Shown here one piece after another: positions 1 through 9,924 of a stretch of 18,303 bases of DNA; within the stretch, counting starts at the first letter, position 1, and every line of letters begins with the position of its first letter. The stretch is from Escherichia coli. GTDB lineage: Bacteria > Pseudomonadota > Gammaproteobacteria > Enterobacterales > Enterobacteriaceae. The position numbers and the translations under genes were made by a program. The DNA lies in NCBI RefSeq assembly GCF_003334815.1, contig NZ_QOWO01000054.1. The stretch is one strand, 5' to 3'. Below the pieces are notes generated by a model. It was given only the letters and a program-made list of their open reading frames with translations, ran no database searches and was not told where the DNA came from.

Positions 1-199
1 GACAGGCCGCTTCGTCGGGCTATTTCCCGAATCGACGCACCATCGCGAAAATGCCAGCGTCGAATTGCGCTCAATATCGCCACGTTTATCACTCCTTGAT
101 TTCTCCCGCCATATCCAGACGGGAAACAGTGTCATACGTGGGTCAAATTTCGACGCAAATCTTTACCCTAAGTGGGTCAATTTTAGATGCAACTCAACA
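1..199. mobile_element. Probable terminal region of an IS21-family element (IS1326-like, as in In2) abutting the 3' end of tniB
   Basis: Two direct repeats about 24 bp long and 20/24 identical (138..161 and 173..196, gtgggtcaa...gcaa), typical of the multiple subterminal repeats at IS21-family ends. The reverse complement of the sequence ending at 199 begins TGTTGAG. Tn21 In2 is known to carry IS1326 next to truncated tniB. The boundary is not verified. Confidence 0.3.
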
Positions 200-1063
200 G
201 GCCATGCTGAGTGTGCGATGGTTGATCGCTTCCTCGCCGCTCTCCACGGCGACGATGGCCGCCGCCATCAGCAAGTGCGCCAGTTCCCCTATGGTGCCCT
301 CGCTGCGTGTGAGCAGGTAGCGAGCCATGTCCAGCGTGGCAATTGGGGAAGGCCGGCGCAGCGGGAGCGAAGCGGCGAAGCTGGCCAGCAGTGAGCAGCA
401 ATCGTCGTTGGCCTCCCATACCGGCAGCATCATCGGCTCGAAGCGATTTTCCAACTGGTCATCGGAGCGGATGGCTAGGTAGGCGTCGCGCGTGCCTACC
501 CCAACCAACGGGATGCGCAGTTCGTTGCCGAGGAAGCGCAGCAGGTTGAGGAATTCCCGGCGGTTGACGCTGTTGCCGGCCAGCACGTTGTGCAGCTCGT
601 CGATCACCAGCATGCGCACGCCGACCTTGCGCAGCAGTGCCAGAGCCAGTTGCTCCATTTCCGGCAACCGTGGGCGTGGGCGCAGCGGCGCGCCCATCGC
701 GGCGAGCAGCGCGACGTAGAAGCGGATCACGGACGGCTCGGACGGCATCTGCACGACCAACACCGGGATGTGCTCCTGGTCGGCGTCGGAGCTGGCCGGG
801 TGGGTGCGGCGGAACTTCTCGACGATCATCGACTTGCCATTGTTGGTCGGGCCAACCAGCAGCAGGTTGGGCATGCGTTGCTTGTTTGGCCACGCATAAA
901 GGGCTTCCAGCCGGTTCAGCGCCTCGACTGCGCGCGGATAGCCGATCCAGCGGTCGGCGCGAAGGCGCTGGATGCGCTCGTCCGCCGGAAGACGGGCCAA
1001 GCCCTGGGCCGCCGGCAGCAGGTGGGACAGGTCGATGATGGGATATTCGTCCACGGCTACCAC
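194..1063 (-). CDS. tniB: TniB, Tn402/Tn5053-family transposition ATP-binding protein, probably the 3'-truncated tniB-delta form
   Basis: 289-aa ORF with Walker A motif GPTNNGKS and Walker B-like LVIDELH. It lies immediately downstream of tniA with a 7-nt overlap. The first codon at 1061..1063 is GTG. It is shorter than the roughly 302-aa full-length TniB I recall, and its stop falls inside the putative IS terminus. Confidence 0.8.
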   Translation of the reverse strand: MVAVDEYPIIDLSHLLPAAQGLARLPADERIQRLRADRWIGYPRAVEALNRLEALYAWPNKQRMPNLLLVGPTNNGKSMIVEKFRRTHPASSDADQEHIPVLVVQMPSEPSVIRFYVALLAAMGAPLRPRPRLPEMEQLALALLRKVGVRMLVIDELHNVLAGNSVNRREFLNLLRFLGNELRIPLVGVGTRDAYLAIRSDDQLENRFEPMMLPVWEANDDCCSLLASFAASLPLRRPSPIATLDMARYLLTRSEGTIGELAHLLMAAAIVAVESGEEAINHRTLSMAC

Positions 1064-2736
1064 TCCTCAATCTGGTCGAACGGTTTGGCGGGTGGCAAGT
1101 TGTCTGCCTGCGGGTCGGCAATATCCGTATCCGGCGGAACGGGCTTGTCCGGCCGAGCTGATGTCTTGAGGTGCTGGCGGCGATCCGCGTCACGCCGCGC
1201 CTTGCGTGTGGCCTTCTGCGCGCTGGTCACAATCTCACGCATCTGGCCGATCATGCGGAACAGCGCCGACTCATCCACCTGTTCGCGCCCTTGCTGCCGC
1301 AGTTTCGCCAGCGCCTGCCGTTGTTCCCAGAGGGTGACAGCCGGATGCGACAAGGTACGGTAGGGAATTTCCAGGTAATGCTGTCCCTCCGGTTCCAGGA
1401 CCCAGATACGGCTGATGTCGCGCGGATCGCGCCGGATCAGAAAGGACGGCCAGCGTTCACGCCGCGCAATCCACGGCTTGAGCGCATCGGCGTAGTAGTG
1501 GATGTGGTCGATGACAAAGCCGGTGCGGGTCAGCGTGCGCCGGAGGATCGGCAGAAAATCGACCAGGAACGAAGTAGCGCGTGTGACGACGGCCGGTACG
1601 CCGACACGCGCCACGGCCTCGGCCCAGCGCGCGGCCGGCGGTTGGAGCAGGCCGTTGTGCACCGAACCGTGGTAGGTGCCGACCGCCAATGTGAGCCAGC
1701 GCTCTAGCTCGCGCAGCGTCAGGGCGGCCTTGTTTTCGGAATCGTAGTCGCCGCGCTGGTCAGGGTTGGAGAAGGTCGTTCCCGGCAGTTCGTCGTGAAT
1801 CATCTGCATCGCCGTGCCGATGATCCGTTCCACGATGCCGCCATAGTGCGGCTGTCCCAGCGGGCGATAGTCCAGCCGGATGCCATGCTGCTCGCAACCC
1901 CGGCGCAGGGCCTCGCTCTTGAACTCGGCCGCGTTGTCTAGGTAGAGCAGCAAGGGCTTGCCGCTCATCTGCCAATCCATTTCCACGTTCAGTCCTTCCA
2001 GCCAAGGGCGCTTGTCGCAGGCGACATGCACGAGGCACAGGCCAACCGAAACGGCAGACGGCGCTTCCAGCGTGACGACCATGCCGAGCACGCAGCGGGT
2101 GAACACGTCGATGGCGAGGGTCAGGTACGGGCGGCCAATAGGTTGCCGGTCGCGGTCATCGACCACGATCAGGTCGATGACCGTATGGTCTATCTGCACC
2201 TGCTCCAGCGGCGCGGTCACGGCAGGAGGCTCGCCGCCCACACCTTGTAGGTCACGAGCGGCATCCTGGCCTTCCCGCCGGCGGATGACCTTGCGCGGGT
2301 CAAGGCTAGCGATCCGTAAGGCCACGGTATTGCGCGCCGGCACTCGCAGTTTTTGAGCCTTGCACACCTGAGTGACTTCGCGGTGAAAGGCCGCTAGGCT
2401 GCGCTTCTGCTTGGTCAGGAACCGCTTTTGCAGTAGCTCGTGGATGACGCGCTCGACCGGTTCCGGCAAGCGCCCCTTACCTTTACCTCCACCGGACTGG
2501 CCGGGCACCAGATCCGTCACGAGGCCGCTGCCTTGCCGGGCACGCCGGATCAGAACGTATACCTGGCGCCGAGACAAGCCCAGCGCCTGAGCCGCCATAT
2601 CGGCCGCTTCGTGCCCGACCGTCTCCGACTGCGCCAACGGACTGATGATCTCCGCACGACGGCGCGCACGCTCCCAAGCCTCATCAGGCAGAGTGGCCAC
2701 GCCTTGTTCTGGAATCCGTGGGGTGTCCGTCGCCAT
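1057..2736 (-). CDS. tniA: TniA, Tn402/Tn5053-family DDE transposase
   Basis: 559-aa protein starting MATDTPRIPEQ at the ATG at 2734..2736, preceded by GAGGTG. The longer 571-aa ORF in the track is an upstream extension. Position next to IRt matches Tn402-type elements. Confidence 0.9.
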   Translation of the reverse strand: MATDTPRIPEQGVATLPDEAWERARRRAEIISPLAQSETVGHEAADMAAQALGLSRRQVYVLIRRARQGSGLVTDLVPGQSGGGKGKGRLPEPVERVIHELLQKRFLTKQKRSLAAFHREVTQVCKAQKLRVPARNTVALRIASLDPRKVIRRREGQDAARDLQGVGGEPPAVTAPLEQVQIDHTVIDLIVVDDRDRQPIGRPYLTLAIDVFTRCVLGMVVTLEAPSAVSVGLCLVHVACDKRPWLEGLNVEMDWQMSGKPLLLYLDNAAEFKSEALRRGCEQHGIRLDYRPLGQPHYGGIVERIIGTAMQMIHDELPGTTFSNPDQRGDYDSENKAALTLRELERWLTLAVGTYHGSVHNGLLQPPAARWAEAVARVGVPAVVTRATSFLVDFLPILRRTLTRTGFVIDHIHYYADALKPWIARRERWPSFLIRRDPRDISRIWVLEPEGQHYLEIPYRTLSHPAVTLWEQRQALAKLRQQGREQVDESALFRMIGQMREIVTSAQKATRKARRDADRRQHLKTSARPDKPVPPDTDIADPQADNLPPAKPFDQIEEW

Positions 2737-2751
2737 GCTCACCTCGCTTTG

Positions 2752-2877
2752 GTGCACACGAGTATTGAGCATAGTCGAGATTGGTGCAGATCACTTCTGA
2801 TATTGAACTGTCAGGAGCTGGCTGCACAACAGCCATTACGCCCAATCAACTGGTGCAGTCGTCTTCTGAAAATGACA
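2752..2877. repeat. Tn402/class 1 integron t-end: 25-bp IRt at 2853..2877 plus subterminal TniA-binding-type repeats
   Basis: 2853..2877 reads gtgcagtcgtcttctgaaaatgaca, whose reverse complement TGTCATTTTCAGAAGACGACTGCAC matches the IRt sequence as I recall it. Similar g(g/c)tgca(c/g)-initiated repeats start near 2752, 2784 and 2822. Confidence 0.8.
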
Positions 2878-3518
2878 TCCATGCCCAGCCCGTGCGCGAG
2901 CTGGATCACCGCCCGCACGATAGTTTGGTCACGGGCATCATCCGGGAGCCTGGCGACAAAGGATTGGTCGATTTTCAATGTGGTGATGGGGCAGCATTTC
3001 AGATGTTGCAGGCAGGAATAGCCGGTGCCGAAGTCGTCGGCGGCGAAGCGCACGCCGATGGCGCGCAAGGCGTCGAAACTGGCGAACAGGGCTGGATTGC
3101 CGAATGCGACCGATTCGGTCAGTTCGATCTCCAGAAGCTCGGCGGGCAGGGCCATATCGGCCAGCACCCGCTTTACCTCGTCGTCGAACGTTGGCCCAAC
3201 CTGGCTGGCGGACACATTGATGGCAAGACGGAACGGTTGCCATGCCGGTCCTTGCCACTTGTGCATCTGGCGACAGGCCTCGCCCAGCACCCACGCGCCT
3301 ATTTCCGGCATCAGGCCGAACGACTCGGCCAGCGGCAGGAACTGGCCGGGCGGCAACAGGCCAAGCCTCGGATGCCGCCAGCGCATCAACGCTTCCGCGC
3401 CAGCGATCCGGTGATCGCGCAGATCGACCAGCGGCTGGTAATGCAGGTCAAGCTGTCCGCGCGCCGCCGCCTGCGCCAACTCGGCCGCCGTCCATCCGGC
3501 GGGCTGCGAACTCGTCAT
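2811..3518 (-). CDS. urf2: urf2 (urf2M), EAL-domain protein and putative c-di-GMP phosphodiesterase, 3' end disrupted by the In2 insertion
   Basis: EAL-domain motifs are present: YQPLV, GAEALMRW, ELTES, DDFGTGYS, LKIDQSFV. Homology ends after ...HGLGMD at the IRt boundary (2877/2878); the last about 21 codons are read from integron sequence. The ATG at 3516..3518 overlaps the merE stop as ATGA. Confidence 0.7.
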   Translation of the reverse strand: MTSSQPAGWTAAELAQAAARGQLDLHYQPLVDLRDHRIAGAEALMRWRHPRLGLLPPGQFLPLAESFGLMPEIGAWVLGEACRQMHKWQGPAWQPFRLAINVSASQVGPTFDDEVKRVLADMALPAELLEIELTESVAFGNPALFASFDALRAIGVRFAADDFGTGYSCLQHLKCCPITTLKIDQSFVARLPDDARDQTIVRAVIQLAHGLGMDVIFRRRLHQLIGRNGCCAASS

Positions 3519-3751
3519 GATCCGCCCCGGAAGGCGCGCAGCAGCCGCGTTACGGCCAGAACGAACAAGCCGGTCAGCGCGAGCGCGGCAACACCCCAAT
3601 GCTCGCCAAGGAAGGCACCGGCGGTCGTCCCGGCCAGCACGGCGGCGAGAATCGGCAGATGGCAGGGGCAGGTCAACACGGCCAGCGCACCCCACAGGTA
3701 GCCGGAAACGGGTTGGCGCGTCTCGGGCGGCAGTTTGTCAGGGGCGTTCAC
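3515..3751 (-). CDS. merE: MerE, small membrane mercury transport protein
   Basis: 78 aa, (V)[37 protein letters not shown]..., with a GTG start at 3749..3751 that overlaps the merD stop as GTGA. The longer ORF in the track is an upstream extension. Confidence 0.85.
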
Positions 3752-4110
3752 GGCAATGCCTCCTCGTGCGCCCGCTCGGCTGGCATGGAGGCCAGTTGCG
3801 CGTCCAGATGGGCCAACGCCGCGCGCCGCCGCTCGACCAACTGGCGCAGCACGGCAAGCTGCGCTGCGGCTTGTGCGCCGTCCGCTGCGTCGAGCGCACG
3901 GCACAGCCGCGCCAGGGCATCCAGGCCGATACCCGCCTCGAAGGCCGCGCGCACGAAGCACAGCCGTTGCAAGGCCGCATCGTCGAACACGCCGTAGCCG
4001 CCCGTGGTGCAGGCCACCGGCCGTAACAAGCCGCGCACCAGGTAGTCGCGCACGATATGTACGCTCACCCCAGCGTTATGGGCCAGTTGCGATACCGTGT
4101 AGGCGCTCAT
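3748..4110 (-). CDS. merD: MerD, MerR-family co-regulator of the mer operon
   Basis: 120 aa starting [29 protein letters not shown], with an N-terminal helix-turn-helix. Sits immediately downstream of merA. Confidence 0.9.
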
Positions 4111-4127
4111 CGCACACCTCCTTGTCC

Positions 4128-5873
<1,746 letters not shown>

Positions 5874-6296
5874 TCACAAGCGCTTGGCGGGGAGTTCGCA
5901 GCCGTCCGGTCCGCAACGGCGATGCGCCGGCGACACGAAGTCCCAGATCGACACCCCAATCATCAAGGCCAGGCCGACGTACATCAGGTTCGCCGTCCAC
6001 CAGTTGCCGAGCAGCCAGACCGTGGCCGCAAACACGATGGCCGGGCCGATCATGCCGAGCAGACTGCGCAGCCATTGCCGATGACTGAACCAACCCAGCG
6101 CGTTCGCCAGGAAGGCCAGCGCGGCAAACAGCGGCAGCAGGCGGCTGATGAACAGTCCCTCGTACTGGCTCAAGAAGCCCAGCCCGATGGCCGCGCCGAA
6201 GCTGGCGAGGGCTGGAAAGCAGGCGGCGCAGCCCATCGCGGAAACGACGCTGCCGAGCGCGCCGGTTTTATCGGCAATGCGTGTCATCAGTCCCAT
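5874..6296 (-). CDS. merC: MerC, inner-membrane mercury transporter
   Basis: 140 aa from MGLMTRIADKTGALGSV..., several transmembrane segments and a GCAAC motif. Located between merP and merA as in Tn21. The track ORF adds 13 upstream codons. Confidence 0.9.
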   Translation of the reverse strand: MGLMTRIADKTGALGSVVSAMGCAACFPALASFGAAIGLGFLSQYEGLFISRLLPLFAALAFLANALGWFSHRQWLRSLLGMIGPAIVFAATVWLLGNWWTANLMYVGLALMIGVSIWDFVSPAHRRCGPDGCELPAKRL

Positions 6297-6331
6297 GAAG
6301 CGGCTCTCGCTGTTGTCGTTGGCTTGCTGGC

Positions 6332-6607
6332 TCACTGCTTGACGCTGGACGGATAGCCGGCGTCTGCGGTGGCCTTGGTCAGCTTCTGTACGCTGGCCTT
6401 GGTGTCGTCAAAAGTGACGACGGCCTCGCGCTTCTCGAAGCCCACATCGACCTTGCTCACGCCTTCGACCTTGGAGAGCGCTTTCTTGACTGTGATCGGG
6501 CAGGCGGCGCAAGTCATGCCGGGAACCGCTAGCGTGACGGTCTGGGTAGCGGCCCACACCGGGGCAACAGCGGCGGCGAGGGCAAGGGAGGCAAACAGTT
6601 TCTTCAT
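6332..6607 (-). CDS. merP: MerP, periplasmic mercury-binding protein
   Basis: 91 aa, MKKLFASLALAAAVAPVWA signal peptide followed by the GMTCAAC heavy-metal-binding motif. The track ORF has a 16-codon upstream extension. Confidence 0.95.
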   Translation of the reverse strand: MKKLFASLALAAAVAPVWAATQTVTLAVPGMTCAACPITVKKALSKVEGVSKVDVGFEKREAVVTFDDTKASVQKLTKATADAGYPSSVKQ

Positions 6608-6620
6608 GATGAACTCCTGG

Positions 6621-6971
6621 TTAATAGAAAAATGGAACGACATAGGGAAATCCAAGCGCGACCAGGACCAGCACGGCCACGATCCAGAAAATCAGCTTGT
6701 AGGTGGCGCGCACCTGCGGAATCGCGCAGACCTCACCTGGCTTGCATGCCTGCACGGGCCGGTAAATCCGCTTCCAGGCGAAGAACAGCGCCACTAGCGC
6801 CGCGCCGATGAACAACGGTCGATAGGGTTCCAGCACCGTCAGGTTGCCGATCCAAGCACCGGAGAAGCCCAGGGCGACCAGTACTAGCGGCCCCAGGCAG
6901 CAGGTCGATGCAAGAATGGCGGCCAGCCCGCCGGCGAAGAGCGCACCGCGCCCGTTTTGTGGTTCAGACAT
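6621..6971 (-). CDS. merT: MerT, mercuric ion transport protein
   Basis: 116 aa from [28 protein letters not shown]..., with the vicinal Cys pair in the first transmembrane segment. The ATG is at 6969..6971. Confidence 0.95.
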
Positions 6972-7000
6972 ACGTTGGCCCTTTTGAATTTGGATTGGAT

Positions 7001-7042
7001 AGCGTAACCTTACTTCCGTACTCATGTACGGAGTCAAGCGAT
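7001..7042. promoter_or_regulatory. mer operator/promoter: MerR-binding dyad inside the PmerT spacer, divergent from merR
   Basis: On the minus strand, -35 TTGACT (7033..7038) and -10 TAAGGT (7007..7012) are separated by a 19-bp spacer that holds the dyad TCCGTAC-ATGA-GTACGGA (7015..7032). This matches the Tn21/Tn501 merOP architecture. Confidence 0.85.
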
Positions 7043-7477
7043 ATGGAAAATAATTTGGAAAACCTGACCATTGGCGTTTTTGCCAAGGCGGCCGGGGTCA
7101 ACGTGGAGACAATCCGCTTCTATCAGCGCAAGGGCCTGTTGCGGGAACCGGACAAGCCTTACGGCAGCATCCGCCGCTATGGGGAGGCGGACGTGGTTCG
7201 GGTGAAATTCGTGAAATCGGCACAGCGGCTGGGGTTCAGTCTGGACGAGATTGCCGAGCTGTTGCGGCTCGACGATGGCACCCACTGCGAGGAGGCCAGC
7301 AGCCTGGCCGAACACAAGCTCAAGGACGTGCGCGAGAAGATGGCCGACTTGGCGCGCATGGAAACCGTGCTGTCTGAACTCGTGTGCGCCTGCCATGCAC
7401 GAAAGGGGAATGTTTCCTGCCCGTTGATCGCGTCACTACAGGGCGAAGCAGGCCTGGCAAGGTCAGCTATGCCTTAG
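7043..7477 (+). CDS. merR: MerR, Hg(II)-responsive transcriptional regulator
   Basis: 144 aa starting [33 protein letters not shown], with an N-terminal helix-turn-helix and C-terminal Cys residues. Transcribed divergently from merT. The track ORF has a 45-codon upstream extension. Confidence 0.95.
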
Positions 7478-7510
7478 CGTGCTTTATTTTCCGTTTTCTG
7501 AGGTGCCCCC
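7473..7510. repeat. IRmer, the 38-bp terminal inverted repeat of a Tn21-family (Tn3-superfamily) transposon
   Basis: cttagcgtgctttattttccgttttctgaggtgccccc is the reverse complement of the GGGGGCACCTCAGAAAACGGAAAATAAAGCACGCTAAG terminus. It overlaps the merR stop as in Tn21. Confidence 0.85.
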
Positions 7511-7551
7511 TTGAAGATCAACTGGCGAAATCAGTTGCTAATATCCTGTAA
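7511..7551 (+). pseudogene. traT: Probable 3' remnant of traT (surface exclusion lipoprotein), truncated by the Tn21-family insertion
   Basis: The frame ending at TAA 7549..7551 encodes (L)EDQLAKSVANIL, matching the F/R100 TraT C-terminus ...EDQLAKSIANIL as I recall it. It lies 141 bp upstream of traD, where traT sits in F-like plasmids. Confidence 0.5.
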
Positions 7552-7558
7552 GACTTTC

Positions 7559-7579
7559 CGGGTGGCCAGCGGTCACCCG
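7559..7579 (+). terminator. Possible stem-loop after the traT remnant (weak terminator candidate)
   Basis: cgggtggcc-agc-ggtcacccg forms a 9-bp stem with a 3-nt loop, followed by T-rich but interrupted sequence. Confidence 0.25.
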
Positions 7580-7692
7580 TATTAAAACGCTTCTCTGTTA
7601 TTTTATTCTCCGCAGTAATCAGAATAAACTCGTTCTGTTTGTAAGGTTTTTTCTGAAGCACCTTCACTGAGTATTATTCTCCGGAAAATATT

Positions 7693-9924
7693 ATGAGTCT
7701 GAATCCTCGCGACTTAACGCAGGGTGGTCAGGTTGCTTTTATGCGCCTGAAAATGTTCCTGCAAATAAATAACCTGATTTCTTATTATGTCATCATGGGG
7801 ACAGTGTTATTTGGTATTGCCGTCCTGCTGATGCGAATAAGCATCCAGAATCTGACCAACGGTATTATTTACTGGTTTGTCCGGATGATTTCACCTTTTA
7901 CGGAAAAAATGGTGAGTCAGCCTGTCTATACCATCCGTTATTACGAACATAAGCTGCAGTACAGTGCACGTCAGATACTGAATGATGATTACACCGTATA
8001 TTGCGGTCAGTTGCTGAAGCAGGAGCTGATTATTGCTGGTTGCGCCGCGCTGCTGGTCGCCTTTGTGGCCACATTCGCCGTGTACTGGTATATCGGGCGC
8101 ACCGGTCGCCAGCAGAGTGAGGATGAAATCATCGGGGGCCGCGCTCTCAGTGAGTCACCAAAAGACGTTGCCCGGATGATGAAAAAACGTGGGGAAGCAT
8201 CCGATATCCGCATCGATGACCTGCCGCTGAAGCTGGATTCTGAAATACAGAATATGTCCATGCACGGTACTGTATCGACCGGTAAGTCCACTCTGATGCG
8301 CAAGATTATGAAGCAACTGCGCGACAGGGGGGACCTGGTCATTATCTACGACAAGGGCTGTACGTTCATTGAGGATTTCTACGATGAATCCCGGGATAAA
8401 GTGCTTAATGCGCTGGATGCCCGTTGCCCCAACTGGGATTTGTGGGAAGAGTGCCGTACGATTTCCGAACTGGAGAATGCCAGTGCAACCTTGATCCCGG
8501 CCAGCAGTGGTGAAGATCCGTTCTGGCAGGGCAGTGCGCGTACCATCTTTGCGGAAGGCGCAGAACGCATGCGCAGGGATGAAGACCGCAGCTACAATAA
8601 ATTCCTGCGCACTCTGCTGGCTATTCAGCTTGATCAACTGAGAACGTTTCTTGCCGGCACGCCCGCTTCCACCCTAGTTGACGGTAAGATTGAGAAGACC
8701 GCCATTTCCATCCGCAGCGTGCTGACTAACTACGTCAAGGCGATGCGTTATCTGCAGGGTATCGACAGGCCCGGACGCGAAAAGTTTACCATCCGGGAAT
8801 GGATGAAGGGCCAGGCCGATAAATCGAAAAATGGCTGGCTCTTTATTACCTCCGACGAACAGAACCATGAGTCTCTTAAGCCATTGATTTCACTGTGGCT
8901 AAGTATTGCAGCCACCAGTCTGCTGGCGATGGGGCCGAACCGCCAGCGACGTGTCTGGTTTTTTTATGACGAACTGGCTTCTTTACACAAATTACCGACT
9001 CTGCCACGAATTATTTCGGAGGCGCGTAAGTTTGGCGGCTGTTTTGTCCTGGGCTTCCAGAGCTTCGCACAGCTGGAAGAAATTTACGGCCCGAAAGCGG
9101 CGGCGGCGCTGTTTGACCTGCTGAATACCAAATTCTTCTTCCGCTCCCCGAGCGCCCAGATTGCGAAGTTTGTGGAGGAAGATATCGGTGAAACCTGGCG
9201 AAAAAAATTCAGTGAACAGACCAGCTTTGGTCATGAACAGGTGCGTGACGGGATTTCTTTTGGCAAGGAAGAAGAACGCGTCAGTATTGTCAGCTACTCC
9301 GATGTGCAGTCCCTGAACGACCTGCAGTGTTTTGTCACCCTGCCGGGAAGTTATCCGGTGGTGAAACTGACAATGAAGTATGAGGCGATGCCCAAAGTGG
9401 CTGACTCGCTGTTGTTGCGTGATGTACAGACCAGTCTGGATCAGATGCTTGAAGATGAAATTACCCGTCGCACTGAAGAAGAGAGGCATAAGTTTGCCGG
9501 CCTGTTCGAAGGGGCGTCGTTAATTCAGGCTGTTCCGGAGAGTAATCTGTCGAATACGCCCCCTCCTTCTGCCGGCCGGGTGGCTGCTGTTCTTGCGGAA
9601 ACAAACACACCTCCTGAGACGCGCACATTACAGACAGAAAACGCTGCCGGCGATGCAGATACCAAAAACACGGGATCCACTGCTGTTGCAGCGGAAGGTG
9701 GCTCCACCTCCACCGGAGGAACTGAGCGGGATATTGAACAGGATTTACCTAAGGACGTTCCTCCGGGTCTGAACAGCGATGGTGAGGTGGTGGATTCCGA
9801 AGCGTATGAGGACTGGGTTCAGGCTTCACATCAGACCCGCGATATGACCCGCAGGGAAGAGGTCAACATCAATCATGCGACAGATAAAGCGCGTGATTTT
9901 GATGACGACAGGGAGGTGTTCTGA
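7693..9924 (+). CDS. traD: TraD, type IV coupling protein of an F-like conjugation system
   Basis: 743 aa, collinear with F TraD (MSLNPRDLTQGGQ vs F MSFNAKDMTQGGQ), N-terminal transmembrane segments, Walker A HGTVSTGKST, acidic C-terminus ending DDDREVF. Divergent from F itself. Confidence 0.95.
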   Translation: MSLNPRDLTQGGQVAFMRLKMFLQINNLISYYVIMGTVLFGIAVLLMRISIQNLTNGIIYWFVRMISPFTEKMVSQPVYTIRYYEHKLQYSARQILNDDYTVYCGQLLKQELIIAGCAALLVAFVATFAVYWYIGRTGRQQSEDEIIGGRALSESPKDVARMMKKRGEASDIRIDDLPLKLDSEIQNMSMHGTVSTGKSTLMRKIMKQLRDRGDLVIIYDKGCTFIEDFYDESRDKVLNALDARCPNWDLWEECRTISELENASATLIPASSGEDPFWQGSARTIFAEGAERMRRDEDRSYNKFLRTLLAIQLDQLRTFLAGTPASTLVDGKIEKTAISIRSVLTNYVKAMRYLQGIDRPGREKFTIREWMKGQADKSKNGWLFITSDEQNHESLKPLISLWLSIAATSLLAMGPNRQRRVWFFYDELASLHKLPTLPRIISEARKFGGCFVLGFQSFAQLEEIYGPKAAAALFDLLNTKFFFRSPSAQIAKFVEEDIGETWRKKFSEQTSFGHEQVRDGISFGKEEERVSIVSYSDVQSLNDLQCFVTLPGSYPVVKLTMKYEAMPKVADSLLLRDVQTSLDQMLEDEITRRTEEERHKFAGLFEGASLIQAVPESNLSNTPPPSAGRVAAVLAETNTPPETRTLQTENAAGDADTKNTGSTAVAAEGGSTSTGGTERDIEQDLPKDVPPGLNSDGEVVDSEAYEDWVQASHQTRDMTRREEVNINHATDKARDFDDDREVF

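Follow-up and report, generated by a model that had tools for sequence, protein, structure and literature searches.

The window, by which we mean the whole 18,303-nucleotide stretch of Escherichia coli DNA that was analysed, begins inside istA of the IS21-family element IS1326, crosses the left tip of that element into a truncated tniB gene, and continues through tniA and the outer inverted repeat IRt of a class 1 integron into the mer side of Tn21 and an F-like plasmid region. Outside the window lie the cassette array, the 5'-CS, the 3'-CS, IRi, the right terminus of IS1326 and the remainder of Tn21. The features assigned at the locus were as follows.

1..199, minus strand: left end of IS1326 (IS21 family), 100% identical to records annotated IS1326; the rest of the element lies past the left edge of the window
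1..83, minus strand: first 27 codons of istA, with GTG at 83..81 and AAGGAG before the start, as annotated in JQ004407, NZ_CP104510 and R100
138..158, minus strand: inner direct repeat (putative L2-type), TTGCGTCGAAATTTGACCCAC from outside in, GTGGGTCAAATTTCGACGCAA on the plus strand, found by pattern search and script
171..173, no strand: empty IS1353 site, occupied in In2 of R100 by IS1353, which shows an apparent 2-bp duplication (AC); the window is contiguous
172..192, minus strand: outer direct repeat (putative L1-type), TTGCATCTAAAATTGACCCAC from outside in, GTGGGTCAATTTTAGATGCAA on the plus strand, found by pattern search and script
174..199, minus strand: IRL, the 26-bp terminal inverted repeat of IS1326, 22/26 identical to IRR in JQ004407
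194..1054, minus strand: tniB-delta1, 285 native codons followed by TGT (Cys) and TGA from IS1326; named tniBdelta1 in JQ004407
1057..2736, minus strand: tniA, intact, encoding a DDE transposase of 559 aa; identical to R751 and delimited as in annotated relatives
2855..2879, minus strand: IRt, outer inverted repeat (25 bp) at the tni end of Tn402/class 1 integrons, reading TGTCATTTTCAGAAGACGACTGCAC from outside in; identity to R751 runs up to 2879
2880..7510, minus strand: Tn21 backbone with urf2, merE, merD, merA, merC, merP, merT, merR and, at 7473..7510, IRmer (38 bp); matches R100 Tn21 at 100% identity

The segment 200..2879 was 100% identical to the tni module of Tn402 in R751 (tniB, tniA and IRt) and the identity stopped exactly at 199/200. 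BLAST against R751 gave one match, 196..2879, with 0 mismatches and a single gap; position 196 was rejected as the boundary after inspection, since it was an artefact of a gap-opened extension and base 199 differs between the two sequences. Directly after IRt the pentanucleotide TCCAT is found (2880..2884). On the other side of the boundary, BLAST of 1..199 found neither tniQ nor contiguous Tn402 sequence, and the whole segment, comprising the start of istA and the left end of IS1326, matched at 100% many records annotated as "IS21-like element IS1326 family transposase", in agreement with the preliminary description, which had placed the end of tniB inside an IS21-family terminus. The annotations under 1..1100, which was present at 100% identity in many plasmid records, were this same transposase label and "TniB family NTP-binding protein". 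In the program-made list the tniA reading frame extends over 1057..2772 on the minus strand (571 aa from an upstream ATG), and all annotated relatives start it at 2736 (559 aa).

Among PLSDB plasmids, 292, drawn from many genera, carried the tniB/IS1326 junction in full length (161-nt probe, window 120..280; match threshold at least 80% of the probe length). The description of this configuration as a known one was borne out; it is already textbook knowledge for Tn21-borne class 1 integrons and is carried by hundreds of resistance plasmids. Other PLSDB records matched the probe only from about 194-197 onward and presumably carry a full-length Tn402-type tniB, and at least one listed record matched only from 171 onward, which prompted a comparison with R100.

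Several further observations concern the surroundings of the integron. The urf2/EAL-domain reading frame (2811..3479, minus strand) crosses IRt and has its stop codon inside the integron, so that its end was created by insertion, in the same way as the end of tniB-delta1. At the other side of the Tn21 backbone, IRmer stops at 7510, where it meets the final 41 nt of traT from an F-like plasmid, traT being interrupted near its 3' end (7473..7552); this Tn21/traT junction was spanned by none of the PLSDB plasmids or complete E. coli genomes, and a search of PLSDB with the whole window found no record spanning it. The remaining part, 7511..18303, is an F-like transfer and leading region (end of traT, traD, traI, a DUF2726 gene, traX, an ANR-family regulator, a thermonuclease and a second DUF2726 gene) that is only 96.5-97.4% identical to its closest plasmids, and only two near-identical records, CP099216 and CP099212, matched through to 18303.

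Terminal anatomy of IS1326

The tip of IS1326 lies at 199 and reads TGTTGA from outside in, the plus strand of the window thus ending in CA-3' at this point. In JQ004407 the complete IS1326 is 2470 bp from tip to tip, and both of its ends start with TGTTGA and form a 22/26 imperfect inverted repeat, as is typical of IS21-family elements, which have imperfect terminal inverted repeats with 5'-TG...CA-3' tips. Only 27 istA codons of the element fall within the window; in relatives with identity throughout 1..199, both istA and istB are complete. The annotated start of istA in JQ004407 (7082..8596) maps to window position 83, and PGAP uses an alternative GTG at 92..90.

Inside the tip there are two 21-nt direct repeats, 18/21 identical and with starts 34 nt apart, which substantiates the two subterminal repeats mentioned in the preliminary description and places them at 138..158 and 172..192. 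A degenerate pattern fitting both repeats occurred at exactly 2 sites in the 18.3 kb, compared with 0.01 expected from shuffled sequences. Because the two copies had served to build this pattern, independent support has to come from elsewhere, namely from the opposite end of IS1326, where the motif recurs: the IRR end in JQ004407 also has two copies, giving a motif TTGCRnnnAAwwTTGACCC that is present twice per end. A generic repeat finder run on 1..400 did not report the pair. Ends of IS21-family elements have at least two direct repeats each (L1/L2 and R1/R2), and integration by IstA requires both repeats as well as the terminal CA (PMC10122671). At least two such repeats are present at the left end in the window and at the right end in JQ004407, and the two repeats in the window are putative IstA binding sites of the L1/L2 type. 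The resemblance to the ends of IS21 and IS5376 extends to the TG...CA tips, the imperfect terminal inverted repeats, the two direct repeats per end and an istA start about 115 nt inside the left tip; IS1326 differs in the spacing of its repeats, which is 34 nt from start to start at the left end and 24 nt at the right end.

The IS1353 site and the relation to In2

The preliminary description had regarded the element as In2-like rather than as an intact Tn402. Its interpretation was supported in essence: the three outcomes that would have refuted it (1..199 matching tniQ, 1..199 matching continuous Tn402 sequence, or a full-length TniB) were each checked, and none of them applied. That the element is not an intact Tn402 was upheld. 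Tn402 (Tn5090) of R751, which represents the intact ancestor type, is nucleotide-identical to the window in tniA, in tniB codons 1-285 and in IRt, whereas it has a 302-aa tniB, tniQ, res and tniR and is without IS1326 and 3'-CS; its order is intI1, cassettes, qacE, tniR, tniQ, tniB (302 aa) and tniA. The In2 label needed refinement on two points. The boundary between tniB and IS1326 is reportedly common to In0, In2 and In5 (Brown, Stokes and Hall in 1996), which means that it is not diagnostic of In2 alone, and the IS1353 site is empty.

In2 in Tn21 of R100/NR1 shares with the window the tniB-delta1/IS1326 junction, tniA, IRt, TCCAT, urf2 and the mer operon, and it differs by an IS1353 copy that interrupts the IS1326 left end just internal to the outer repeat. 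In the alignment with R100, 171..7511 showed 0 mismatches in 7341 nt and 1..176 matched about 1.6 kb further on. The intervening sequence in R100, about 1.6 kb between positions 7398 and about 9013, is IS1353 (TGGGGGTGCGGAC...GTCCGCACCCCA), which lies immediately inside the outer repeat of IS1326 and carries an IS3-family transposase gene between tniB-delta1 and istA. The window keeps the pre-insertion sequence ...GACCCACTTAGGG..., with L1 and L2 of IS1326 still next to each other. Of the hallmarks of canonical In2, the junction and the location in Tn21 beside urf2 were thus found, and IS1353 inside IS1326 was absent. That the element is nevertheless the canonical In2 of Tn21, with IS1326 interrupted by IS1353, is a reading for which the complete identity of 171..7511 to R100 Tn21 and the shared junction could be cited, but we consider it very unlikely, since the site occupied by IS1353 in R100 is uninterrupted in the window, which refutes it for this site. 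Judged by its sequence, the element in the window is the IS1353-free form of an In0/In2/In5-type boundary, located in an otherwise 100% identical Tn21.

Two further relatives have the uninterrupted arrangement. Both pHH3408 (JQ004407, IncP) and NZ_CP104510, an E. coli plasmid, carry orf5, IS1326 (istB, istA), tniB-delta1 and tniA in this order, as in the window, and were 100% identical to it over 1..1100; we take their arrangements to be of the In0/In5 type (names after Brown et al. 1996). The record of pHH3408 was annotated by hand and names the genes istA, istB, tniBdelta1 and tniA. In pHH3408 the integron lies in the IncP backbone and not in Tn21 as in the window. NZ_CP104510 combines the uninterrupted IS1326 end with the mer context of Tn21 and matched the window in one piece through 7521.

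Given that IstA needs two complete repeats at each end, IS1353 would be expected to cripple the left end of IS1326 in In2, and the corresponding end in the window is intact. The IS1326 copy in the window, with its repeats adjacent, unlike those of canonical In2, may therefore still be transpositionally active.

Absence of tniQ, res and tniR and a proposed deletion

Of the components of a self-transposable Tn402/Tn5053 module, the window has an intact tniA and the 25-bp IRt (IRi lying outside the window), and it lacks a full-length tniB as well as tniQ, res and tniR downstream of tniB; in their place IS1326 directly adjoins tniB. For the tniQ, res and tniR sequences of R751, blastn gave no match in the window, JQ004407, NZ_CP104510 or the first 50 kb of R100, and a tblastn search of the window with the TniQ and TniR proteins was likewise negative. 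In JQ004407, NZ_CP104510 and R100, all of which have the identical junction, orf5, sul1 and qacE-delta1 of the 3'-CS come next after the far end of IS1326. A target duplication of 4-8 bp around IS1326 was sought in JQ004407, the one relative checked, and none was present (flanks GTTGTCGATATC and GGCCATGCTGAG, i.e. ...CGATATC and GGCCATG...). The lack of a shared duplication implies an IS-associated deletion; it is what is expected after an adjacent deletion and is no argument against the identity of the IS. Since the window ends inside istA, both the deletion history and the absence of tniQ and tniR elsewhere on this replicon are extrapolated from the relatives, an extrapolation that we regard as safe because the junction is base-for-base identical in them.

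Taken together, the left end of IS1326 cuts tniB at codon 285 in a Tn402-type class 1 integron located in Tn21, and the arrangement very probably arose by insertion followed by an IS-associated adjacent deletion that left the integron non-autonomous. In the sequence of events that we propose, IS1326 would have inserted in tniB so that its left tip (199) abuts codon 285, and an IS-associated adjacent deletion would then have removed tniQ, the res site, tniR and the 17 final codons of tniB, joining the far end of IS1326 to the integron's 3'-CS with no duplication of the target. The integron would have retained tniA, IRt and presumably IRi and lost self-transposition, and it would be carried passively by Tn21 and the plasmid.

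A competitor to this history is a simple insertion of IS1326 in tniB, in which the rest of tniB, tniQ and tniR would be intact past the other end of the IS. That end does lie outside the window, as such a reading requires, but in 3/3 relatives (JQ004407, NZ_CP104510 and R100) the 3'-CS is found there with no tniQ or tniR, the flanks in JQ004407 share no duplication and, among the matches listed, none had tniQ beside IS1326. A simple insertion is therefore highly improbable, and insertion with adjacent deletion is the reading that we retain.

Tn402 is self-transposable (PMC3575428), and In0 and In2 transpose only with Tn502 tni genes in trans (PMC7765201). In line with the latter report, the integron in the window would probably also be mobile if a complete tni module were given in trans.

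Extent of the tniB truncation and its consequences

The minus-strand reading frame in the program-made list extends over 194..1063 (289 aa from an upstream GTG) and ends ...AINHRTLSMAC* with the stop at 194..196, exactly where the preliminary description had placed it. In annotated relatives tniB starts at the GTG at 1054, which gives 286 aa. When this product was aligned to the full-length TniB of R751 (302 aa), residues 1-285 were identical, codon 286 was TGT (Cys) where R751 has GTT (Val), and TGA followed as codon 287; the truncated gene thus has 286 codons and its native identity ends at 285. The last sense codon and the stop are supplied by the first six bases of IS1326, the stop being formed by bases 4-6 from the tip, inside the 26-bp terminal inverted repeat and 2 nt outside the outer direct repeat. 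The loss to TniB amounts to 17 C-terminal residues, VYTGPSERRRQFERELM.

Although the truncation of tniB was verified, its extent is therefore small. The Pfam TniB domain (PF05621) is intact at residues 27-214 of the tniB-delta1 product (E = 3.9e-78), and both Walker motifs, A (GPTNNGKS) and B (LVIDELH), are kept; in an NCBIfam scan of the TniB reading frame no family model matched, whereas the Pfam model did. Residues 36-282 of full-length TniB aligned with TnsC of Tn6677, whose structure is solved, which puts the cut shortly after the AAA+ core. PGAP labels the 286-aa product (WP_000344784.1) "TniB family NTP-binding protein" and sets no pseudogene flag. That label could be taken to mean that the reading frame is a naturally shorter, full-length TniB variant next to repeats that arose by chance, a notion with practically no probability, refuted by a nucleotide identity to R751 that is complete to codon 285 and gone at the next base, by the identity of the downstream sequence as IS1326 and by a repeat motif that recurs at the other end of IS1326 far above chance.

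The preliminary description had also ascribed the immobility of the module to the IS1326 insertion that truncates tniB. The truncation by IS1326 stands; the transposition defect, as we interpret it, rests mainly on the missing tniQ-res-tniR segment and less on the small cut in TniB, and the non-autonomy of the integron is a deduction from this loss. A defect based on TniB is countered by the fact that TniB-delta1 keeps the entire region that aligns with the AAA+ core of TnsC. It is conceivable, if rather unlikely, that TniB-delta1, retaining all of these residues, could still be a working ATPase.

The importance of these findings is limited to annotation and typing. Automatic annotation of the product as an ordinary TniB conceals the defect, and by its boundary the integron can be recognised as a defective Tn402 derivative in the IS1326 (In0/In2/In5) lineage. 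For typing, the empty IS1353 site separates this Tn21 variant from the R100 prototype. As a defective derivative of Tn402, the integron would depend for its spread on Tn21, a conjugative plasmid or the provision of tni functions in trans. If TniB-delta1 were indeed active, integrons of the In2/In0 type would need in trans only TniQ (plus a resolvase) and not the whole tni module.
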